DNA of 62,260 nucleotides. It comes from Candidatus Adlerbacteria bacterium (GTDB lineage: Bacteria > Patescibacteriota > Minisyncoccia > Phycocordibacterales > SBAW01). Location: contig CAIJFH010000035.1 of NCBI GenBank assembly GCA_903819895.1, positions 1 to 62,260 of the forward strand, written 5' to 3'. The position numbers were made by a program, and so were the translations under genes. This document shows positions 7,238 to 54,554 of this stretch, one piece after another (the first letter of the stretch is position 1; the number at the start of each line of letters is the position of its first letter). The notes under the pieces were generated by a model. That model was not told where the DNA came from and ran no database searches. It saw only the letters and a list, made by a program, of their open reading frames with translations.

Positions 7238-7657
7238 ATGAAACACATCAGCATTGGCATCATCGCAGCATTTTTGATTATCGGCGCAGGCGCGTTCCTG
7301 CTCTCGGGCTTTGGCGCAACCAACTCAAACGTCGCCACCAACACCACAACCGACCAGACCGCAGCAGTCGCTGCAAGTGGGACACCAGCCACCACCGGGT
7401 CGACTACACCAGCCGCGACGTCCTACACCTTGGTACAAGTAGCAACGCACAATAGCTCCACCAGTTGCTGGACAGCAATCAACGGCAATATCTATGACGT
7501 CACGGCGTGGATCAACCAGCACCCTGGCGGGCCGCAAGCGATCATTGCGCTGTGTGGCAAGGACGGCTCGGCAGCGTTTAACGGCAAGCACGGTGGCCAA
7601 GCGCGCCCCGCGTCCGAACTCGCCACCTTCCGCATCGGCGCGCTCGCAACCAACTAA
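7238..7657 (+). CDS. Membrane-anchored cytochrome b5-like heme-binding domain protein
   Basis: N-terminal TM, Thr-rich linker, b5 core (HNSSTSCWTAINGNIYDVTAWINQHPGGPQAI). Confidence 0.8.
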   Translation: MKHISIGIIAAFLIIGAGAFLLSGFGATNSNVATNTTTDQTAAVAASGTPATTGSTTPAATSYTLVQVATHNSSTSCWTAINGNIYDVTAWINQHPGGPQAIIALCGKDGSAAFNGKHGGQARPASELATFRIGALATN

Positions 7658-7682
7658 TCTCATCCGCACCACGAAACCTACT

Positions 7683-8111
7683 ATGGATATACACACCATC
7701 GCGCTTGGCGTTCACATCGTGTCGATCTTCCTCGCCATCGGCGGCATCCTCTGGGCCGACCACACCGCGTACCACTGGTTTACCAGCAAAAAAGAGGTGC
7801 TCGACCACCGCACGCTGCGCTGGCTGCATGGCATCGTTGGCACTGCGCTTGGACTCCTCATCGGCAGCGGCATCATCCTCTTTTGGCCCGCACACAACTA
7901 CCTGCTGTCGCAGCCACTCTTCCTGCTCAAGATGCTGTTTGTCGTGCTGTTGGTGATTAACTCAATTGCCATCGACCGTTTGATGCATCGCGCAGCCAAC
8001 TTCCCCTACCGATTGCTCCCACGCGCACAAAAAATCCCGCTGTTTATCAGCGGAGGTGTATCGGCTTTTTGCTGGGTAGCAACGATTGTGGTCGCGCTGA
8101 TTATGTTCTAG
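7683..8111 (+). CDS. Integral membrane protein, unknown function (about 4 TM, conserved His residues)
   Basis: Track ORF 7494..8111 trimmed to MDIHTIALGVHIV. Hydrophobic helices throughout. Confidence 0.65.
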   Translation: MDIHTIALGVHIVSIFLAIGGILWADHTAYHWFTSKKEVLDHRTLRWLHGIVGTALGLLIGSGIILFWPAHNYLLSQPLFLLKMLFVVLLVINSIAIDRLMHRAANFPYRLLPRAQKIPLFISGGVSAFCWVATIVVALIMF

Positions 8112-8208
8112 CCAGAATCACGAAACGTCCTGTTACTTTTCTTTTTTTGTCAGAGTTGTAATGAGCGAGAAGTAATCAATCATCACACCTATGACACATA
8201 GCGCTTGA

Positions 8209-8248
8209 GCCGAGGAGGTCTACCCTGCGGGGATACGGCCTCCTCGGC
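8209..8248 (+). terminator. Strong hairpin after the 1307-8111 gene string
   Basis: 10-bp stem gccgaggagg / cctcctcggc followed by gtttgtg. Confidence 0.45.
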
Positions 8249-8350
8249 GTTTGTGCTACATAGGAACTGCCCCAACCCCACTGCGCGGTGGCACTTCCAT
8301 CTTTTGCCGTTTTCTTGTACAGTACAGAGTGTTCGCAATAACCCATGTTC

Positions 8351-8425
8351 GGCCTCATCGTCTAACGGTTAGGACAGCGCCCTCTCACGGCGTAAATCGG
8401 GGTTCGATTCCCCGTGAGGTCACCA
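8351..8425 (+). tRNA. tRNA-Glu (anticodon CTC), CCA encoded
   Basis: Cloverleaf folded by hand. Acceptor GGCCTCA/TGAGGTC, anticodon loop CTCTCAC, T-arm GGGGTTCGATTCCCC. Confidence 0.9.
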
Positions 8426-8448
8426 ATCCACGCTCTATAAACAACGCG

Positions 8449-8485
8449 AGCCGCATCCTTCCCCGTTTTGGTTCTGGATGCGGCT
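8449..8485. terminator. 10-bp hairpin between tRNA-Glu and the convergent wHTH gene
   Basis: agccgcatcc (8449-8458) / ggatgcggct (8476-8485). Confidence 0.5.
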
Positions 8486-8494
8486 TAGAAAATA

Positions 8495-8971
8495 CTATTC
8501 TGGCACATTCATGCTTATAAACCCTCTTCGCCTAACATTAATGAGTCGCTGAAAAGATTCCTCTCCCAATACTTTTTTTATACGATACAGAGCACCACTC
8601 AGAGACACCCTCCCTTTCTCTGCGCTTGATACCTCGGGCCAGAGCACACCTATAAGAAGAGTACGCCTATAAGCAGCACCGGGAACCAAACCCAGCAAAT
8701 ACAAGACGCGTATTGCTTTGTTGTCTAGCGTAAACTCTTCTCCGGATACAATCAACTTGCACTGCTCCGTGTCAATAGTAACTGGTCCCCGGTTTATAAC
8801 GACAGGATATTCCTGTCCGATACACGTATTTATTTCTTCGATACTTTTTCCTATAGCAGCTGCCGTATCAGGATTAAGCCCCTCGACGGCTCGACTCAAA
8901 GCTAGTAGCGCATTTCTGATTCTTACCACATCTTTTCCATTCAACAGTACGAAATCGGACATAGAGCGCAC
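8495..8971 (-). CDS. Winged-helix (OmpR/SARP-type) DNA-binding protein, no receiver domain
   Basis: C-terminal LDNKAIRVLYLLGLVPGAAYRRTLLIGVLWPE...LYRIKKVLGEE...RRRGFISM matches the OmpR/PhoB-class wHTH pattern. Lies in an AT-richer region. Confidence 0.7.
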   Translation of the reverse strand: MRSMSDFVLLNGKDVVRIRNALLALSRAVEGLNPDTAAAIGKSIEEINTCIGQEYPVVINRGPVTIDTEQCKLIVSGEEFTLDNKAIRVLYLLGLVPGAAYRRTLLIGVLWPEVSSAEKGRVSLSGALYRIKKVLGEESFQRLINVRRRGFISMNVPE

Positions 8972-9046
8972 TCCTGTGTATTCCTGTGGTTAACTCACTC
9001 CATCAATTATACCATTGTGGGCCAAGTTGTAAAGCGGGTCTATTGC

Positions 9047-9080
9047 AAAAAGAGCTGCGCCATTTTTGGCGCAGCAAGCT
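9047..9080 (-). terminator. Intrinsic terminator of the 9104-10093 gene
   Basis: gctgcgcc attttt ggcgcagc. On the minus strand the stem is followed by ctcttttt. Confidence 0.7.
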
Positions 9081-9103
9081 AACAACGGATGTCATCATAG
9101 AGA

Positions 9104-10093
9104 TCAGTGTGAGATTTTAAGAAACACACTGACCACCTGATTTTTTTGAGTTACTACACCGAACATACGCCCCCATCGCGGAGAGTTGAACTTGCTTGAA
9201 AGAGAGTGTATACAATCCATAAAGCGTTTGGATTGCCCCCTCTCACTCAACTCTGACCAACAGGCGTCTATTATTGCTTGGCGAGTTGCCCAGCACCCAT
9301 CAGAGAGCAGTACCACGCAAAGAAACGCCGCATCGTCCAATCGCAACGCGACAGGACAAATCACACCAGGTGGGTCAGTGACAATCCTCGGCGGATGCAG
9401 ACATCCTCCCACAACTCCACTGGGCGATAGCGTATTTTTACCGCCATACAATTCAATCTCCCCCGCAGCACCGAACAAGAACGAGCGGAGTGATTTTTGT
9501 CTCGGAGCGACGGGCACTTTCTTTTTTGCTTTGTCGCTCTTGACACCTAGACCAAGCCACCTAATCTCGTTTCTAAAACGGATAATTTGAGGGGTAAATA
9601 TTTCGCCATCTTTAACGTAGATAGTGTACTCCCCCCGTACCTGCCTAGGATGTGGTCTCACTAGACCAAATTTCTTTTCTGAGCCACGGCCAGAACTATC
9701 AAGATAGAACAGCAGGTCATCATGACCAAGCGCTCTTAATTTATCCTTCAAAACTCTGAAGGTTCGATCGATTCTTGCGTGATACCTGAGATTATTTCTT
9801 TTGGCATCACCCCAGCACTGTCGTTCGATAAACAACGATGGTGCCAACAAACTTTTTTTGTACCGAGCAATGACAAACCAAAGGAAAGTCGCCTGCGCAC
9901 CAGAAACGGGGAGAAACGCTCGCCCTGTTATCTGGGCAGGATTTCTACGAATTCTTCCTTGAATTTTCCCACCATCGCAACGAGCGAGCTCTATAATAGG
10001 TTTTCTGGCTGTATTCTTTTTCTCTACCTCTATAATACGCCCCCATGTCAGGGACGTGTCGCTGTCCACATGGTTGTTCATCGCACCCCCCAT
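9104..10093 (-). CDS. Protein with two tandem OmpR/SARP-like winged-helix domains
   Basis: Two wHTH-like segments (ATFLWFVIARYKKSLL...CWGD...FRVLKDKLRAL and AAFLCVVLLSDGCWATRQAIIDACWSE...IHSLSSKF). Start uncertain (M at 10093 or 10081), because the longer ORF overlaps the VIT1 gene. Confidence 0.6.
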   Translation of the reverse strand: MGGAMNNHVDSDTSLTWGRIIEVEKKNTARKPIIELARCDGGKIQGRIRRNPAQITGRAFLPVSGAQATFLWFVIARYKKSLLAPSLFIERQCWGDAKRNNLRYHARIDRTFRVLKDKLRALGHDDLLFYLDSSGRGSEKKFGLVRPHPRQVRGEYTIYVKDGEIFTPQIIRFRNEIRWLGLGVKSDKAKKKVPVAPRQKSLRSFLFGAAGEIELYGGKNTLSPSGVVGGCLHPPRIVTDPPGVICPVALRLDDAAFLCVVLLSDGCWATRQAIIDACWSELSERGQSKRFMDCIHSLSSKFNSPRWGRMFGVVTQKNQVVSVFLKISH

Positions 10094-10179
10094 TGTTGTG
10101 CATCTGTTGCACCCGGTTTTGATTGAACACCACCTTAATAAAATAGTAAAGAGAGCGCTTCGTGTGATACAATTGCCCA

Positions 10180-10881
10180 ATGACACATCATGAACCGCAC
10201 GCGAGCGGGCCGGGGGTGCGGCTCAATTGGCTGCGCGCGGCGGTGTTGGGCGCCAACGACGGTGTCGTGTCGGTGGCGTCGATTGTTGTTGGGGTTGCGG
10301 GCGCGTCCAACACCACGGGGTTTATCTTGACCGCAGGCGTCGCGGGGCTGGTCGCCGGGGCGCTGTCGATGGCGGTTGGCGAATACGTCTCGGTAAGCAC
10401 CCAACGCGACACCGAACGCGCCTTGCTTGAGAAAGAGCGCGGCGAGCTGCGCGACGAGCCCGAAGCCGAGTTGGCAGAATTGACGGCAATCTATCGCGCA
10501 AAGGGCTTGACCGAGCAAACCGCGCACCAAGTTGCCGCCGAGTTGACCGCGCATGACGCCTTTGCCGCACATGTCGAGGCCGAGTTGCGTCTCGACCCCG
10601 ACGAGCTCACCAACCCATGGCATGCGGCGGTTGCATCTGCTGCGGCATTTCTCTCGGGCGCCATCATCCCACTTGTCGCGATTATGCTCCCACCTGCGGG
10701 CTGGCGTGTCCCCATCACCTTTGCAGCAGTGTTTGTCACTCTCATCATCACCGGCACCTTGAGTGCCCACGCGGGTGGCGCCAACAAGACACGAGCGACA
10801 CTGCGCGTGGTCCTCGGCGGTATCCTCGCGGTAGTAATCACCTTTGGCATCGGCAAGCTGTTTGGTGTTGCGGGTATATAA
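10180..10881 (+). CDS. VIT1/CCC1-family iron/manganese transporter
   Basis: LNWLRAAVLGANDGVVSVASIVVGVAGA, central acidic helix, C-terminal TM bundle. Confidence 0.9.
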   Translation: MTHHEPHASGPGVRLNWLRAAVLGANDGVVSVASIVVGVAGASNTTGFILTAGVAGLVAGALSMAVGEYVSVSTQRDTERALLEKERGELRDEPEAELAELTAIYRAKGLTEQTAHQVAAELTAHDAFAAHVEAELRLDPDELTNPWHAAVASAAAFLSGAIIPLVAIMLPPAGWRVPITFAAVFVTLIITGTLSAHAGGANKTRATLRVVLGGILAVVITFGIGKLFGVAGI

Positions 10882-47480: not shown

Positions 47481-47747
47481 ATGCCTATCGAGAGTATTCA
47501 CACCACTCCGCAATTCGATAAGCACTATCGCGCACTCGCGAAAGCCGTTAAGACAGCGGCAAAAGAAAAGGAGGCGCTGTTCCGTCTCAACCCATACAAC
47601 CTCCGTTTGCGCACGCACAAACTGCATGGCAAGGATGCTGGCGCGTGGGCGTTTTGGATAAATCAAAAATACCGCATCAAGTTTCTCTTTGTCACCGAGC
47701 GCAGCGTGCTCTTTCTCGACATCGGCACGCACGATATATACTCGTAG
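47481..47747 (+). CDS. RelE/ParE-superfamily toxin
   Basis: 88 aa. THKLHGKDAGAWAFWINQKYRIKFLF...VLFLDIGTHDIY pattern. Confidence 0.8.
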   Translation: MPIESIHTTPQFDKHYRALAKAVKTAAKEKEALFRLNPYNLRLRTHKLHGKDAGAWAFWINQKYRIKFLFVTERSVLFLDIGTHDIYS

Positions 47748-47845
47748 TTTGTCAAATACCGCGGTGGGTTTGCTTTATCGTGAGAGGTGGTATACTTTTG
47801 GCGCATAGCAGAAGTCCACACACTAACCACTTTACCCACATCCCT

Positions 47846-49096
<1,251 letters not shown>

Positions 49097-49112
49097 TTAG
49101 AACTATTCTCGC

Positions 49113-49167
49113 AAAAAACCCTTAGCTACGGAGAGATAAACAAGAAACTCCTGCGCTAAGGGTTTTT
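49113..49167 (+). terminator. Terminator-like hairpin with conserved inner motif, copy 1
   Basis: A-run, stem acccttagc/gctaagggt, loop taCGGAGAGATAAACaagaaACTCCTGc, T-run. Confidence 0.7.
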
Positions 49168-49194
49168 GCTCAAATAATGCGGTATACTCTTGAT

Positions 49195-50175
49195 ATGTAT
49201 GATTTAGCAATTTTGGGAGGTGGCCCTGCGGGGGTGGCGGCGGGGGTGTATGCGGCGCGCAAGCGGTTGAAGACGATTTTTATTGCAGAGACGGTTGGCG
49301 GGCAGAGCACCGACTCGCTCGAGATCCAAAACTGGATTGGCACCGAGAAAATATCTGGCGTCGACTTGGGCAAATCGCTCGAGCGACACCTGCGCGCCTA
49401 CGCGGGCGACATGGTTGACATCGCGCTCGGCAAACGTGTTGAAAAACTTTCTGCAACAGAGAACGGAGGCACAACACCTGCTACTATAGAAAAAATCCCT
49501 GGCGGGTTTGCACTGCACTCGCCTGCCGAGTACCAGGCGCGGACTATCTTGATCGCCACCGGCGGATCACGTCGCAAGCTCGCTGTCCCGGGCGCGAAAG
49601 AGTTTGAACATAAAGGCCTCACCTACTGCGCCTCATGCGACGGACCACTCTTTGCTGGGCAGGATGTTGTCGTTGTGGGCGGCGGCAATGCAGGGTTTGA
49701 GAGCGCGGCGCAGCTCTTGGCCTACTGCAAGTCGGTCGCGCTGGTGCATCGCGGCAGCGACTTTAGCAAAGCGGATGCGACCACTGTGGCAAGTGTCATG
49801 GCGCACCCCAACATGCGCGTCTACACCAACAGCGAGCCGGTCGAGGTCCGAGGCAACACGTTTGTCAGCGGCTTGGTGATCAAAAATAATCAGACGAACG
49901 AAACAACCGAACTCCCCGTCGCGGGCATCTTTGTCGAGATCGGCGCGGTGCCCAACACCACCTTTCTCCCACCGCTCATCGAGCTCGATGCGTTGGGTCG
50001 AGTACCGGTTGACCCAGCGACCCAGCGCGTGCGCTCCGCGGGTGTCGAGGTGCCGGGGCTATGGGCCGCGGGCGACGTCACCAACGGGCGCTTTCATCAA
50101 AACAACATCGCCGCCGGCGACGCCGTCAAAGCGCTCGAGGACATCTACCTCTACATCAAATCGACGCAGCACTAG
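49195..50175 (+). CDS. Thioredoxin-disulfide reductase family FAD/NAD(P) oxidoreductase
   Basis: GGGPAGVAAGVYAAR, redox CASC, second GGGNAGFE dinucleotide fold. TATACT 49183-88 + 6 nt. Confidence 0.85.
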   Translation: MYDLAILGGGPAGVAAGVYAARKRLKTIFIAETVGGQSTDSLEIQNWIGTEKISGVDLGKSLERHLRAYAGDMVDIALGKRVEKLSATENGGTTPATIEKIPGGFALHSPAEYQARTILIATGGSRRKLAVPGAKEFEHKGLTYCASCDGPLFAGQDVVVVGGGNAGFESAAQLLAYCKSVALVHRGSDFSKADATTVASVMAHPNMRVYTNSEPVEVRGNTFVSGLVIKNNQTNETTELPVAGIFVEIGAVPNTTFLPPLIELDALGRVPVDPATQRVRSAGVEVPGLWAAGDVTNGRFHQNNIAAGDAVKALEDIYLYIKSTQH

Positions 50176-50276
50176 CCACCGCCACAACTCCACCCGCCGC
50201 TGGACTTTCCACCCGCTTTGTGCCATAGTGTGACTTGGCACATGAGCGGAAACGCTCAACACAGGAGGATCGTCCA

Positions 50277-50777
50277 GTGACGAAAGAAAAAATCTACGAA
50301 CACGCACACGCTGTTCAATTGATGTTTCGGCTTATGTTCGCTCCGGCGAATATGAGCCACACGCAGATGGACGTCGCGTTGGGGCGGTGGCTTCGCGTCC
50401 CCGTTGTGCGGTGTTTGTGGGCATACGGATTGTCCCGCCATGCCCATGCCGCGCTCAAAAAAGCGGAAAATGCGGAGCCGCGAAAACCACACCAAATGGC
50501 TCTCGCGCACGTTCGTGCAGCGATGGCGGAGATACTTCGAGTTCGAGACAGAGACGACTTAGCAACAAAAAATCGGGCCCTAAGACATATCCACCTCGCC
50601 ATCTCTGGAGAAACGCTCCGCGCAATAAGAGGAGAGGGTGTGTATGGAGTACAGCAAGGCGTGTCTGTGCTCCAGCATGCTGTGAGATTTTTTAAAAGTC
50701 TCGGCATGACGAACGATGCTGAAAGAGCTGGAGCAATATTAAGAACATGGATTGAACTGTCCGAACAAACGTGGTAA
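50277..50777 (+). CDS. Hypothetical all-helical protein (SD-led, GTG start)
   Basis: AGGAGG 50263-68, 8 nt before GTG 50277. Own terminator. Confidence 0.55.
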   Translation: MTKEKIYEHAHAVQLMFRLMFAPANMSHTQMDVALGRWLRVPVVRCLWAYGLSRHAHAALKKAENAEPRKPHQMALAHVRAAMAEILRVRDRDDLATKNRALRHIHLAISGETLRAIRGEGVYGVQQGVSVLQHAVRFFKSLGMTNDAERAGAILRTWIELSEQTW

Positions 50778-50788
50778 ACCACACCAAC

Positions 50789-50826
50789 CAGCGGCGGCCC
50801 ACCTCGGGCTGCCGCTGAATCTTTTT
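50789..50826 (+). terminator. Intrinsic terminator
   Basis: cagcggc ... gccgctg extended stem followed by aatcttttt. Confidence 0.8.
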
Positions 50827-50833
50827 ATACTTG

Positions 50834-50852
50834 GTGCGCGGTGAGGGACTTG
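50834..50852 (-). repeat. Displaced copy of the tRNA-Val 3' end (T-loop to acceptor, followed by CCA)
   Basis: 19-mer gtgcgcggtgagggacttg is identical to 50970-50988 inside/next to tRNA-Val. This copy is followed by CCA, the tRNA copy by CTC. Confidence 0.8.
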
Positions 50853-50970
50853 GTCACAACTCTCGGATGCGCCGTCGCGCATCCTCGGTCGCGACCCCGG
50901 CTCGCGGTCTCGCCTGCTGGCTCGACATCGCTCCGCCTTTCTCGTCCCTCGAATTTGCTTCGCAAATGAG

Positions 50971-51043
50971 TGCGCGGTGAGGGACTTGAACCCCCGACCC
51001 TCCCCACGTCAAGGGGATGCTCTACCAACTGAGCTAACCGCGC
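50971..51043 (-). tRNA. tRNA-Val (anticodon GAC), CCA not encoded
   Basis: Reverse complement GCGCGGT ... TTGACGT ... GGGGGTTCAAGTCCCTC ... ACCGCGCA. Confidence 0.88.
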
Positions 51044-51112
51044 ATTTTTTCTTCTACCAAACTCTAACAAACAAGCGGGTATTTGTCAGCAAGTTGCTGC
51101 AAATGCCCCGTG

Positions 51113-51199
51113 CGGAGAGGGAGAGATTCGAACTCTCGATAAGGTTACCCCTATGCCGGTTTTCGAAACCGGTGCCTTCGACCACTCAGCCACCTCTCC
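51113..51199 (-). tRNA. tRNA-Ser (anticodon CGA), long variable arm
   Basis: Reverse complement GGAGAGG ... TTCGAAA ... GAGAGTTCGAATCTCTC ... CCTCTCCG. Confidence 0.88.
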
Positions 51200-51263
51200 A
51201 GATGTCGGGTCGGACAACACACACCATAGCACTTTTTCTCGATTCGAGCTATATTCTCCCTAC

Positions 51264-51335
51264 GGCCTCATCGTCTAACGGTTAGGACAGCGCCCTTTCA
51301 CGGCGTAAATCGGGGTTCGATTCCCCGTGAGGTCA
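51264..51335 (+). tRNA. tRNA-Glu (anticodon TTC), followed by CTA instead of CCA
   Basis: Identical to the tRNA at 8351 except for the wobble base (T vs C). Confidence 0.88.
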
Positions 51336-52999
51336 CTAGAAGCATCAAAACGGCTCTGAAGAGCGACGAATCCTTTTTTGCACTTATACTGCAACGTATT
51401 CTGCGTGAGGGTGAGTTCGGAAAATATAACGCGGATGATCTGCTCTTTTTCATGCGGTTTTGCCGCATCGTAAATAATAGCAGCGTCTTCTAGGAGTTCG
51501 GAAAGTTTTACAATATCTTTGATGGTCTCTGCCATTGAAATGTCCGATACTATTTCTGCCTCGCCGATTGTCACAAGTTCAGTGTTTAGTTGCGCCTCTT
51601 CGGCGACCAGTGACTCTGGAGTATACGCACCGCTGCGCAAGAGCGGCAAACGGTTGGCGTGCAAGTATGCAAGATCCTCGCGAATCTTTTTCTTGCGGCG
51701 CTCGCCCTCTTCGAGTTTGTTGCAACGCTTTGTCTCTAAAATGGCAACGTCGGTATTCGCCCGAGCGTCGATCTCTGCTTTTTCATCTTCGGTAAACACG
51801 AGTTTTTGTATCAACCCGCCCACCTTGTCGGCTATATAGTCAAAGTTGATGCTCTTGAGCGTATTAGTACAGTGCTCGCTACAGCGTGCGCCATAGTACA
51901 TGATGCCTTTCTTTGGGTATGGAGTGTATACGCGCCCACAGTCGCCACAGCGCACCAAACCGCGCAGTGGGTGGGTGAGCACTTGAGCATAATGCACGGA
52001 CTTATTTTTCTTTTGTAGCTGCTTTTGGACCGCCTCAAAAAGAGTATCCGACACAATAGCCGTATGGCTCGTGCTTAGTATCCAGTCGTTGTCATTACCC
52101 GGGACTCTGCCAGTATAAAAATGGTTGGTCAGAATCTTGTGTATCGAGTTGGCGGTCGGTATGCGAGACACAGCGGCAATCTCAAGTCGCATATCGTCCT
52201 CTTCTTCGGCTAGTATCTCCTCGTTGGTTCTGCGGCGGCGCACTGGTGGCATAGTAAAGCCCTGCTCGACTGCGTAGCGTGCAAGGTCTGCCAGACTCCA
52301 CTCGCCAGTCGCCGCTTTCTCAAACAATGTGGCAATAATCGGCGCACGGACCGGATCAAGCGGCTTTTTGTCCATGTTGCCAAGATTGAGATACCCCACA
52401 GGGGCTTTATTCGTACACAGCCCGCGGGTGCGAGCGTTGCGGATAGTGATGCTCACTTTCTCACGAGTCACACGCGAGTGGTGCTCGGCAAACATGCCGT
52501 CAATATCCATATGCAACTCTCCAGCACTGGTCTTATCGTATTGTGCGAGCGTAAAGCGAATATCGACACCCGCTTTCATCAGCTTGCGCAGTATGGTGTT
52601 GTCGCCCTTGTTGCGGCTTGCACGGTCCCAGCACAGAAATACCACACCCTTGAAATAGCCCTTATTGAGCAGCTGCACGAGTTGGTAAAACTTCGGGCGG
52701 TCGACTCGATACTGCACCGCGTTACCGTCGCCAAACGCGAGTTCGACATTTTCTTTAAATCCCGAGTGTCGCTCCGAAATAACCCCGTCGGCACAAAAAC
52801 CATCGAGCGTCAGCGCCGCAAGGTTGAGATTTTCACGAAATGCAAAACGGACATTCTCGGACTTTTGGTACTTGATGGAGTTCTTTTGATTCTCGGTGTC
52901 GTCGGTGCTCTTGCGGTTGTACACCAAATAGCAATCACGGTACGCACCGCTCGCTATATCCTTGAGTATCGCTTCTGCTGTTTTTTCTTTGGTCGTCAT
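51275..52999 (-). CDS. Large serine recombinase
   Basis: Resolvase-type N-terminus (YLVYNRKSTDD), recombinase domain, Zn ribbon CGDCGR...CSEHC, C-terminal coiled coil. Last 20 codons lie antisense inside tRNA-Glu. Confidence 0.9.
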   Translation of the reverse strand: MTTKEKTAEAILKDIASGAYRDCYLVYNRKSTDDTENQKNSIKYQKSENVRFAFRENLNLAALTLDGFCADGVISERHSGFKENVELAFGDGNAVQYRVDRPKFYQLVQLLNKGYFKGVVFLCWDRASRNKGDNTILRKLMKAGVDIRFTLAQYDKTSAGELHMDIDGMFAEHHSRVTREKVSITIRNARTRGLCTNKAPVGYLNLGNMDKKPLDPVRAPIIATLFEKAATGEWSLADLARYAVEQGFTMPPVRRRRTNEEILAEEEDDMRLEIAAVSRIPTANSIHKILTNHFYTGRVPGNDNDWILSTSHTAIVSDTLFEAVQKQLQKKNKSVHYAQVLTHPLRGLVRCGDCGRVYTPYPKKGIMYYGARCSEHCTNTLKSINFDYIADKVGGLIQKLVFTEDEKAEIDARANTDVAILETKRCNKLEEGERRKKKIREDLAYLHANRLPLLRSGAYTPESLVAEEAQLNTELVTIGEAEIVSDISMAETIKDIVKLSELLEDAAIIYDAAKPHEKEQIIRVIFSELTLTQNTLQYKCKKGFVALQSRFDASSDLTGNRTPIYAVKGRCPNR

Positions 53000-53190
53000 A
53001 GCTGTATGATGTCCTCTTTGATCATTTTACCATCCTTTTTTACATACCCCTCGCTCTTGAGACGTGTTCGGATACCAGCAAGTACGGCACCAAGCTCGCG
53101 CAATCCTTGGATTGTTTCGTCAGTAAAATACGTCTGCGCGTCTGGTAGATATACCACCTCCGAGAGTTGTTCTTTGCGGTTCTTGTTCAT
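52996..53190 (-). CDS. Small protein (64 aa) coupled to the recombinase gene; directionality-factor or regulator candidate
   Basis: ATGA overlaps at both ends (52996-99, 53187-90). Confidence 0.55.
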   Translation of the reverse strand: MNKNRKEQLSEVVYLPDAQTYFTDETIQGLRELGAVLAGIRTRLKSEGYVKKDGKMIKEDIIQL

Positions 53191-53774
53191 GTTGGTAGTT
53201 CGACCCCAAGCGCCCGCGCTAGGGCTTGCATACCCTTTGCAAAGCGTTCTTCCATCAGCAACAGTCTTACATATTGCTTGGTCAACCTGCCAGCATAGTG
53301 GGTTCGTTTTACGCGGTCCTTCTGGCGCTCAATATCGGGGATACTCACAAACCCTTTGTCATACGGTGGCGCGTTGCGGCTGGCATAGGTGAGCTTGTTG
53401 CAGTGTCGGCACGCAAAGCGATTGCCAAGCAGATACAGCGTCCCAACTCTCCGGCCGCAGTGTTGTCCGTCTGTATCCCACGGGCATATAAACCAGTAGC
53501 GCCTCCCGCCGTATGCGCATGGTGTCGACGTGAGCGGTATTTGATAATCCAGATACTGCTTTTCGCCAGTAACCCTGTCTGTGACGTTGTATACAAGCCG
53601 TACAGCCGATGAGATGCCCGAACTGGGTGCCTGGTTCGTGCATAAGAGCGGCAATATGGTGGGTTGCGGGACGGGCACTGCCCCGATCGTCGATTCGACC
53701 CAGTTCCCGACGCTTTCGACTGAAGAAATCTGGGACATCCTCGTCGCCGAGTTGGCGAAGTTGAAACTGCCCAA
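53187..53774 (-). CDS. Zinc-ribbon protein of unknown function (YGGRRYWFICP...CGRRV...CRHC)
   Basis: Cys4 ribbon with a conserved-looking GGRRYWFxCP motif. Start uncertain (TTG 53774 or ATG 53738). Confidence 0.6.
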   Translation of the reverse strand: MGSFNFANSATRMSQISSVESVGNWVESTIGAVPVPQPTILPLLCTNQAPSSGISSAVRLVYNVTDRVTGEKQYLDYQIPLTSTPCAYGGRRYWFICPWDTDGQHCGRRVGTLYLLGNRFACRHCNKLTYASRNAPPYDKGFVSIPDIERQKDRVKRTHYAGRLTKQYVRLLLMEERFAKGMQALARALGVELPT

Positions 53775-53795
53775 AGCCTAAGTGCTGATTACCTT

Positions 53796-53836
53796 GAGAC
53801 CTCAAACCCATACCAGGGAATGAGGTCTCTTTTTTT
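53796..53836 (+). terminator. Hairpin + T7 at the right edge of the element (candidate original tRNA-Glu terminator / att arm)
   Basis: gagacctca (53796-804) / tgaggtctc (53821-29), then ttttttt. Confidence 0.55.
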
Positions 53837-54098
53837 ATGCGATACTGCTGGCAATCGGTGTGACGTATGTCCTCGCCGTGTCGGGGTTTGGCTGGGAGTA
53901 TTTTGAGGCGACGCGCTCGAGTGCACGGGTTAGCTGTGGGGCAATAGTCGTGATTTTCAGTTTGGCTTTATGCGGCAGGGGGTATTTTGGGCTGCGATGC
54001 GCGACGTGCACCCTGCCTGACGCCCGATTCGTATACATGTATGCACAGGACGAGTGTCACATTAACTCTTCATATAACAACGTAACGCAAGTCGCACT

Positions 54099-54554
54099 AT
54101 GAAAAACAAACTCATTTATATCGTCGGTTCGACCATGGTCGTGGGATCGCTCGTGCTGAGCGGGTCTGCGTTCGCCGCAACGAGGCAGACGGTGGGCGCA
54201 GCCACGCACCAAAGCGCATCCGCACGCGTGGTCGGGACGCCGCCGTTGGTCTTTGGGACGATCGCCGCAGTCAACGGGACGAGTGTCACCGTGACGGGCA
54301 AGGCAGGCAAGCATGCGACGACGACGGCCTACACGATCGACGCGTCGGCCGCCAAAATTACAAAGGGGTATGGTCAGGGCGCGCAATCAATCGGCGTAGC
54401 AAACCTCGCGGTTGGTGATATGGTCGCGGTCGTCGGTGCGGTCACGGGCAATACCGTCTCGGCGACGTCGATTCGTGACACGGGCTCGGCAACCAAACAG
54501 GTAAAGACGCACAACGGCAAAAATACGTCAGCACACCCAAAGAAGACGAAGTAG
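54099..54554 (+). CDS. Secreted DUF5666-like protein
   Basis: Signal peptide, GTIAAVNGTSVTVTGKAGK ... VGDMVAVVGAVTGNTVSATSI. Confidence 0.65.
   Translation: MKNKLIYIVGSTMVVGSLVLSGSAFAATRQTVGAATHQSASARVVGTPPLVFGTIAAVNGTSVTVTGKAGKHATTTAYTIDASAAKITKGYGQGAQSIGVANLAVGDMVAVVGAVTGNTVSATSIRDTGSATKQVKTHNGKNTSAHPKKTK

Follow-up and report, generated by a model that had tools for sequence, protein, structure and literature searches.

At positions 51,264 to 53,836 of a 62,260-nt contig of Candidatus Adlerbacteria bacterium (CAIJFH010000035.1; the window, here and below, is this contig over its full length), the gene of a large serine recombinase (LSR) reads antisense into a tRNA-Glu(UUC) gene. Very probably, this region is the attL end that remains of a truncated element, belonging to a family of LSR-moved elements widespread in Patescibacteria, in which attP lies inside the LSR gene and the C-terminal tail of the recombinase is swapped on integration. 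The members of this family appear to be small (4.7-9.5 kb) integrative elements that would replicate themselves by means of a primase-polymerase (prim-pol).

In the mechanism that we propose, attP would lie in the 3′ end of the LSR gene at codons C-D-P-T-G, with the coding sequence of ...KGF.AL.SRF... as the P′ arm and the coding sequence of the C-terminal tail, W-L-S-E-L..., as the P arm. The partner of attP in the LSR reaction would be a tRNA gene (in most cases tRNA-Glu), entered at its 3′ end: the crossover at positions 72-74 (discriminator/C74) would keep the tRNA through C74 and cut the LSR gene at a flexible linker. The sequence encoding a terminal helix of about 25 residues would be left at attR, and the open reading frame (ORF) of the LSR would extend into the antisense tRNA, ending at the first stop codon there. 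Excision would rebuild the native LSR gene. We infer from the sequence comparisons given below that it is the LSR that catalyzes the integration reaction.

The tRNA-Glu(UUC) gene (anticodon ttc) occupies 51264-51336 of the forward strand, as judged by ARAGORN and by alignment with its twin, tRNA-Glu(ctc) at 8351-8425, and its neighbors in the ARAGORN annotation of the window are tRNA-Ser and tRNA-Val. The two tRNA-Glu genes have the same bases, save the wobble base, as far as GAGGTCAC, after which the twin reads CCA; tRNA-Glu(UUC) is intact through C74 and then reads CTA instead. It is followed by three minus-strand ORFs coupled by 4-nt ATGA overlaps, namely the LSR ORF in its integrated form (51275-52999, 574 aa), a 64-aa partner gene (52996-53190), homologues of which stand directly upstream of other LSR genes, and a 195-aa ORF with a TTG start and a Cys4 Zn-ribbon (53187-53774). 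The LSR residues through ...SRFDASSDL are element-encoded, and the final ~20 codons (51278-51336) are antisense tRNA, with the stop codon at 51275-77 falling in the tRNA D-arm. The GC content of 51337-53607 was found to be 0.509, relative to 0.561 for the contig, which is about 2 standard deviations low (sd 0.025 for equal-sized windows along the contig); 2.8% of such windows reach values this low. The decrease is real, albeit modest. Most of this had been described in an earlier note on the same DNA, and these parts of it were borne out: the tRNA with its start at 51264 (ARAGORN now adds the end at 51336), the match of the twin up to GAGGTCAC followed by CTA versus CCA, the three overlapping ORFs, the ~20 antisense codons with their stop, the AT-richer block, although only modestly so, and a left junction near 51337, which we place at about 51336/51337.

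Its domains and fold identify the enzyme as a large serine integrase, in agreement with the earlier call of a large serine recombinase. In the 574-aa protein, Resolvase (PF00239) scored 46.5 bits against a Pfam cut-off of 23.3, and Recombinase (PF07508), which follows the catalytic domain, scored 44.6 bits against a cut-off of 21.1; Zn_ribbon_recom (PF13408) scored 23.6 bits, slightly below its cut-off of 25.3, and PHROG assigned the protein to an integrase family. The order of domains is that of LSRs: resolvase catalytic domain, recombinase domain, Cys4 zinc ribbon and long coiled-coil. Across 50 homologues, Y27, R29, S31 and Q38 of the catalytic domain, which holds the serine nucleophile, are invariant, as are the four cysteines C351, C354, C373 and C377. 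An AlphaFold2 (AF2) model of the homologue P0014, which has a native tail, was computed from a 50-sequence alignment and contains a beta ribbon and long helices (404-482). Foldseek matched this model with probability 1.0 to full-length serine integrase-att complexes (PhiC31, Bxb1, A118 and others), and several of the PhiC31 and Bxb1 complexes among these matches were released in 2026. At the level of sequence, phmmer found no match to the LSR among PDB chains, and an LSR profile reached only the A118 integrase (4kis/6dnw, Recombinase region; E = 5e-5). Searches for relatives detected 794 LSR homologues, of which the top 120, with identities of 59-75%, are spread over very different phyla.

The pattern at the window locus recurs throughout a survey of 84 loci fetched around LSR homologues (L001-L084). 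The LSR ORF ends within a convergent tRNA in 43 of the 84, the tRNAs being Glu(ttc) in 24, Glu(ctc) in 12, Ala in 3, Leu in 2, and Val and Ser in 1 each. Nearly all of these tRNA-ended loci belong to Patescibacteria (Paceibacteria, Adlerbacteria, Nomurabacteria and Saccharibacteria-labelled metagenome-assembled genomes), and the closest relative of the window is Candidatus Adlerbacteria bin-425 (L005), with an LSR 98% identical. The homologues agree through ...KGF.AL.SRF....CDPTG and then split mainly into two C-terminal classes. In one, the sequence NRTPI...K.R.PNR is the antisense translation of tRNA-Glu; this tail is 5-20 aa long, and in several loci the stop comes after 5 codons. In the other, the native class, which is found where no tRNA adjoins, WLSEL..R..I..SI.EL makes up another 25-40 residues.

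Coding sequence for the native tail was also found by itself, at the far end of the elements. A hidden Markov model (HMM) was built from 55 native tails and used to search six-frame translations of all loci, which revealed orphan tail-coding pieces at no fewer than 13 of them (L005, L008, L010, L017, L023, L025, L026, L027, L037, L045, L052, L054 and L083) and further ones at L006, L058 and L060. The orphan tails share the strand of the LSR, stand 4.7-9.5 kb upstream of attL (the tRNA junction) and cover the post-split part only. Each opens with (T)GT GAC CC. in the codon phase of the cut LSR gene, and therefore joining the two ends restores a full LSR ORF. Just outside the orphan tail in several loci (e.g., L010, L023, L025 and L026) there is a hairpin followed by a T-run, which is the original terminator of the tRNA. 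The location of these tails at the far end and in frame indicates that attP is inside the recombinase gene. Our comparison thus places attP within the LSR gene, with a predicted attL composed of tRNA, core and P′ (the 3′ coding sequence of the LSR) and a predicted attR composed of P (the tail coding sequence), core and host flank.

Several further arrangements of LSR ends were seen among these loci. A third recurrent C-terminus past the split point, EPI.PR.EH(L)GKYG... (L058 and L060; proteins P0018 and P0047), suggests that some members use another conserved target, which is neither tRNA-Glu nor the native tail. In L025:1280-4213, there are four serial orphan tails on the LSR strand (at 1349, 1954, 2930 and 4124), the outermost of which adjoins a terminator and two of which resemble each other in the sequence upstream; successive integration events at a single tRNA-Glu appear to have left this stack of relics. 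In L005:1386-1570, right after trxB, a 92-bp copy of the LSR 3′ end is followed by GTGACCT and an intact native tail (DLLGWLSELSKQREWIALSVRELGAIVTP and stop). The presence of this attP-type junction at the far end of the element suggests a tandem or secondary integration (attP x attL, or homologous recombination) and subsequent decay. Outside the survey, a metagenome LSR only 24% identical to that of the window (L114:7465-9038) also ends in the 3′ part of a tRNA-Glu(ttc), and so the architecture may be older or wider than the family studied here.

The crossover was located by aligning attL with attR for the 13 loci in which both junctions are available. Within every one of these loci, the two sites share GTG and the next base in the LSR sense, corresponding to tRNA T71-C72-A73-C74, and in six loci they differ at position 75, which is therefore excluded from the exchange. 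The attL and attR flanks share only 4-14 nt around GTG. The core tracks the target, being GTGACC for tRNA-Glu, GTGGGC for tRNA-Val and tRNA-Leu(cag), and GTGC for tRNA-Leu(taa). A dyad scan of 22 intact attP sequences gave a peak of 10.3 of 24 complementary positions, relative to a background of 6.2 +/- 1.2, centered 1 nt from the core, and the attP arms, CTTCAGAGCCG (or variants) and TGGCTTTCnGAAC, are each 14 nt from GTG. From the attL/attR comparison and the dyad center, the crossover core in the window was placed at CAC (C72-A73-C74; GTG in the LSR sense), 51334-51336, and the exchanged dinucleotide is most likely A73-C74 (51335-51336), in which case the element starts at ~51337. The crossover thus maps at or just past the last base of the TGAGGTC heptamer, and not within it as had been proposed in the earlier note.

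The 3′ acceptor and T-arm of tRNA-Glu(UUC) would be the B arm of the attachment site. On the element side, the predicted P′ arm of attL (51337-51361) lies in LSR coding sequence and consists of a 14-nt spacer and then CGGCTCTGAAG (codons ALQSR), which is an imperfect inverted partner of the P-arm motif TGGCTTTCnGAAC. A reconstructed attP would contain ...GATGCTTCTAGTGACCTGTTAGGGTGGCTTTCCGAAC...; the junction of the circular form would read ...GATGCTTCTAGTGAC/CTGTTAGGGTGGCTTTCC, and the restored attB would read tRNA-Glu...GGTCAC/host flank, the slash marking the junction in each case. A scan of IMG/VR with the attP/attR pattern returned one match. The same 22 attP sequences have a second dyad peak (10.6 of 24) at a distance of 26 nt upstream of the crossover (window ~51362-51390), which is centered in the KGF.AL.SRF codons (GGATTTGAAGC/GCTTCAAAGCC type). 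This second peak, weak in the copy carried by the window, could mark either an RNA hairpin or an additional site for protein binding.

The tail-coding sequence appears to be both a DNA site and a protein segment. A comparison of 40 non-identical tails, native or orphan, showed TGG CTT TCn GAA to be invariant, including the wobble positions of Leu and Glu, which points to a constraint on the DNA and is consistent with an outer P-arm motif. Further downstream, information is present only at codon positions 1-2, at residues +11, +15 and +18 (i, i+4, i+7), a pattern that argues for an amphipathic helix under protein-level selection. The AF2 model of P0014 has a beta-hairpin at 526-540, a low-confidence linker at 553-557 where the crossover codons are, and a helix at 560-583. 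The LSR is cut after residue ~555 of ~585, past all known domains. The model therefore predicts that integration cuts the protein at the linker and strips the last helix (~25-35 aa), leaving the catalytic and DNA-binding parts together. The proposal in the earlier note that the tail changes with the integration state stands, whereas the excised-state tail it gave, DLIPWYGFEVSR, does not: the native tail is of the type DL(L/T)G-WLSELSKQREWIALSVRELGAIVTP, as read from the L005 junction. The native-tail form of the LSR of the window lineage, reconstructed from L005, would be the LSR followed by LGWLSELSKQREWIALSVRELGAIVTP.

The copy in the window is incomplete. It can be aligned with L005 at the nucleotide level from the tRNA as far as 53607, where the homology breaks off abruptly. 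On the minus strand, 53187-53607 is the 3′ two-thirds of the Cys4 Zn-ribbon gene, homologous to its family from residue ~57, and the N-terminal ~60 residues of that family (MRGG.NS.GK.EAD.LKKIS..FLKK.GYF.G..SGTITWT) are replaced by unrelated sequence in the window ORF. At the deletion junction, 53607/53608, the homology of the element stops and that of another gene begins. On the plus strand, 53608-53781 encodes the C-terminal ~58-67 codons of an unrelated ~318-aa family (P0230-like), as found by phmmer and tblastn: residues 12-65 of the fragment align with residues 262-315 of the 318 in P0230 (...GQWFLHGSTHFIGCGTRSHPLVEAGEYTQLTPDEIYNIVCDELEKV...), and tblastn of the fragment gave 37% identity (E = 1e-10). 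No blastn or tblastx homologue of window 53608-54100 was found in the 84 related loci, and only an exhaustive protein search identified the fragment. Beginning 15 nt past the stop codon of the fragment, a hairpin (53796-53829; -20.8 kcal/mol, z = -4.5) is followed by U7, and this is the intrinsic terminator of the gene fragment (53796-53836, plus strand), with a 9-bp outer stem and an inner stem before T7. The TGAGGTC at 53821-27 is the descending arm of this hairpin. This heptamer occurs 6 times on the plus strand and 7 times on the minus strand of the window, which is chance level.

As for the other end of the element, the 55-sequence tail HMM (six-frame) detected no P arm or native tail in the window, and a search of the window for the DNA motif TGGCTTTCnGAAC at up to 2 mismatches gave nothing relevant. 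The chimeric product, MSQISSVESVGNW...SSA/VRLVYNV..., was called on four contigs (62260, 4393, 4079 and 1545 bp), and P0122, the other chimeric member that was read, differs from the window copy at several residues. The four contigs and the residue differences indicate that the junction is biological rather than an artefact. A later deletion with its left end at 53607 took about two-thirds of the element, including the prim-pol gene, DUF5659, cargo, the P arm with the native tail, and attR, and the same deletion also removed the 5′ part of a neighboring gene. Because attR and the native tail are gone, the window copy should no longer be excisable by attL x attR; it is a truncated and presumably immobile relic consisting of the attL end only, and not a minimal element. 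Four points of the earlier note change. The compact element of ~2.5 kb that it described is not complete but cut at 53607, and close relatives carry 5-8 kb. The second TGAGGTC with its T7 is present but as part of a hairpin and not as an att site, and the T7 belongs to the terminator of the truncated plus-strand gene and is not a displaced terminator of the tRNA. The 195-aa Zn-ribbon ORF is real, but its product is a chimera and not an intact protein.

Complete relatives indicate what has been lost. The L005 element encodes DUF5659 (127 aa), a 775-aa Prim-Pol/PriCT protein, a 201-aa Zn-ribbon protein, the 64-aa protein, the LSR and two Cys-rich ORFs; L001, which is in tRNA-Glu(ctc) and has an LSR 75% identical, instead encodes a 458-aa protein and a zinc-finger protein of the DnaG type. 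Elements with an LSR more than 90% identical to that of the window are 5-8 kb long, with a prim-pol replicase, DUF5659 and the full 201-aa Zn-ribbon gene, and one of these complete elements has the synteny of the window (element, tRNAs, trxB and ftsZ). The window and L005 elements are 97% identical in nucleotide sequence, compared to 87% for trxB and 88% for the tRNA-Ser/Val region, a contrast that fits recent horizontal spread of the element. The Zn-ribbon family (~200 aa) has 103 homologues, all annotated "hypothetical"; there was no Pfam or PHROG match, and an AF2 model (pLDDT 84) gave no Foldseek match in the PDB at E <= 0.001. A homologue of the 64-aa protein is directly upstream of the LSR in 81 of the 84 loci, regardless of tail class, which marks it as an obligate partner of the LSR. 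The 64-aa protein had no match in Pfam or PHROG, and our guess is that it may be a directionality or accessory factor.

Empty sites were found in relatives, as the earlier note had suggested looking for. In L090, L111 and L112, the ftsZ/trxB-tRNA-Ser-tRNA-Glu(ttc) neighborhood is kept and the site is empty (TrxB ~55-60% identical). The empty sites read GGTCAC and then A-rich sequence, and CCA is not encoded there either. A near-identical strain with this very locus empty was not found. A metagenome scan with the 3′ 36-mer of tRNA-Glu(UUC) gave 27 tRNA-Glu genes, those of L090, L111 and L112 among them, none of which (0 of 27) was followed by the LSR family. Within the window, the twin tRNA-Glu(ctc) has no LSR either.

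The reading of the region as one end of an element that carries attP in its recombinase gene has to be weighed against a number of points. For every member, the case is a comparative inference from sequences, not reads. The only attP-type junction of the window's own lineage, that of L005, adjoins the 92-bp LSR remnant and requires a tandem or secondary event. The crossover dinucleotide could be AC, CA or TC, the dyad center being 1 nt off the shared core. No circular contig with an intact attP was found; the three contigs inspected (L085-L087, with native-tail LSRs) had no terminal overlap, but one of them is conjugative-plasmid-like and their result has no bearing on an episomal stage. Native-tail LSRs also occur without an adjacent tRNA within large chromosomal contigs of Bacteroidota and Proteobacteria, where some of the genes adjoin conjugation genes; evidently, either the in-gene site is not the one used in these hosts or the elements arrived there by other means. 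In three Bacteroidota loci with an intact native-tail LSR (L024:10157-12102, L035:7982-9697 and L062:4280-6880), we also observed extra copies of the small partner gene, convergent and just downstream of the LSR, with orphan tails further on.

Other explanations of the locus itself were considered. A complete and excisable compact element of 2.5 kb, bounded by TGAGGTC at 51328-34 and 53821-27, with DLIPWYGFEVSR as the tail and T7 as the displaced terminator, is extremely unlikely. The heptamer does occur at both places with T7 after the second, and a TGG is as far from GACCT as is the W codon in native tails; yet the heptamer occurs 13 times in the window, its second copy is the terminator arm of the plus-strand fragment, the core is CAC and the TC after GGTC at 53821-29 does not fit it. 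Moreover, the P-arm motif TGGCTTTCnGAAC was not found in the window, the Zn-ribbon gene is without its conserved N-terminus, and close relatives are 5-8 kb long. The break at 53607 could instead be an assembly chimera, in which case the organism would have a complete element and the sequence to the right of the break would belong elsewhere. In its favor, the contig comes from a metagenome and complete elements are present in related populations, but the chimeric product is on four contigs, P0122 differs from the window copy, and homology switches at one point on both strands, and we regard this explanation as very unlikely. That the relic has been kept because the host uses the LSR/64-aa pair, e.g., in trans on incoming relatives or in blocking them, is improbable as well. 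The three ORFs are intact, the LSR has a dN/dS of 0.10 between the window and L005 copies, and the deletion variant is present in several samples. However, all of the measured divergence could be older than the deletion, the Zn-ribbon gene has lost its 5′ end, and there is no independent sign of a host function.

A separate question is what the swapped tail means. The overlap with the tRNA may have no functional meaning, attP simply overlapping a dispensable gene 3′ end and the two forms of the enzyme being alike, and we give this possibility a little less than an even chance. The antisense tail is only 5-20 aa long and is constrained by the tRNA and not as protein, and all catalytic and DNA-binding domains are upstream of the cut; on the other side, protein-level conservation of the native tail holds between phyla and extends much further than the ~25 bp required for an att arm, and AF2 predicts this tail as a confident helix. 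More tentatively, the tail swap could be a built-in sensor of the integration state, in a family that retargets tRNAs (Glu, Val, Leu, Ala and Ser) through a few core bases while reading the shared T-arm, although we consider this doubtful. The integrase of the free element, with its C-terminal helix, would then be competent or tuned for attP x attB, and the integrated form, helix-less and tRNA-tailed, would differ in directionality, stability or dependence on the 64-aa protein.

In comparison with known LSRs (PhiC31, Bxb1, A118/LI, TP901-1 and SPbeta SprA), the family described here has the same domain order and fold, and its predicted att sites would likewise be short, with very little identity between attP and attB and possibly with imperfect dyad arms. 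It is also like them in having a small adjacent gene, here that of the 64-aa protein, that could be a directionality factor; small recombination directionality factors such as TP901-1 Orf7 and SprB are known. It differs from known LSRs in its very remote sequence, its tRNA 3′-end target, an attP within the ORF with a state-dependent C-terminus, and its Patescibacteria hosts.

The closest parallels to the in-gene attP come from tyrosine integrases. Mycobacteriophages BPs and Brujita, in work from 2013 by Broussard and colleagues on integration-dependent immunity, reportedly have attP within the repressor gene, and integration by a tyrosine integrase is said to remove a degradation tag and so to alter how the repressor behaves. 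By analogy, the elements studied here would resemble these phages in that attP is in a gene of the element and integration alters a C-terminus, except that there the repressor is split and here the recombinase itself.

In Archaea, the SSV-type "suicidal" tyrosine integrases (SSV1, pTN3 and pT26-2) have the site inside the integrase gene, a tRNA target and a gene that is partitioned on integration (PMC8371274), and integration that splits the integrase gene was stated to be exclusive to Archaea in the same 2021 review. The window family likewise has attP in the integrase ORF, a tRNA target and partitioning (orphan tails at 13 or more loci). However, the SSV-type enzymes are tyrosine integrases (Phage_integr_3), whereas the window family has a serine recombinase and is found in Patescibacteria and other bacteria; and the SSV-type split parts Int(N) from the catalytic Int(C) and is inactivating, whereas here only the terminal helix (~25-35 aa) is replaced.

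Small elements at tRNA 3′ ends that carry primase/polymerase genes, leave serial relics and sporadically occupy a conserved tRNA site are also typical of tycheposons and tRNA islands, and the window family is like them in these respects. Almost all of those elements have a tyrosine recombinase and, at their flanks, long direct repeats made of a partial tRNA copy that restores the gene, whereas here the flanks share 4-14 nt and the element carries a ~7-nt core resembling the tRNA end (GTGACC) and no partial-tRNA copy, the tRNA being kept from the host side through C74. An LSR was found in 27 of 937 tycheposon-like elements (Hackl et al.), and the in-gene attP architecture is not described there. 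Our literature search found no description of attP inside an LSR gene or of LSR-tRNA elements in Patescibacteria, and it was fair of the earlier note to name no known element family, although this absence is no proof that the arrangement is unpublished. The variant of LSR element is apparently undescribed, an in-gene attP with a tRNA target having been reported, apparently, only for archaeal tyrosine integrases.

If the tail is a state sensor, the family would be a serine-recombinase equivalent of integration-dependent phage switches and of the suicidal integrases of Archaea. For the insertion of large DNA, serine integrases are among the leading tools, and the control of their directionality is an active structural question; the family would provide natural pairs of "before" and "after" integrases for the comparison of attP x attB with attL x attR. 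It would also extend self-splitting integrases beyond the archaeal tyrosine recombinases and add a common self-replicating integrative element in Patescibacteria, the mobile elements of which are poorly known. The apparent targeting of the tRNA discriminator/CCA end by LSRs, with simple core changes between tRNA species, may be useful for the choice or design of integrase targets.

The surroundings of the tRNA genes vary among relatives. A LAGLIDADG homing-endonuclease ORF is present between tRNA-Glu and tRNA-Ser in L005:9796-10614 and in L116-L118; the window has no such ORF, and 64 bp separate the two tRNA genes there. The tRNA-Glu/Ser/Val cluster occurs in either orientation relative to ftsZ-trxB (L001-L084, compared to window 47645-51336), and trxB lies beyond the element in L005, L023 and L037, which indicates that the tRNA cluster has been inverted in some lineages.

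Other tRNA-Glu neighborhoods also contain unusual sequences. The lowest-GC stretch of the contig, 7650-10400 (0.48-0.49), is beside the twin tRNA-Glu(ctc) and contains two minus-strand ORFs, at 8495-8971 (with a weak Trans_reg_C match) and at 9104-10186 (with no match); it may be another tRNA-Glu island, without an LSR. In L092, L094, L095, L103 and L115, units of ~190 nt, in tandem in L094, were found downstream of an intact tRNA-Glu. They gave no match to an Rfam family. Each unit starts with an inverted copy of the tRNA 3′ end (GACCTCAC..GGGGAATCGAA), has a conserved interior (GGCGGAGC...CAGCAG...CGCGAGGCGG) and ends with a direct copy (TTCCCCGTGAGGTCAC), and these units may be miniature elements that use the same tRNA end.

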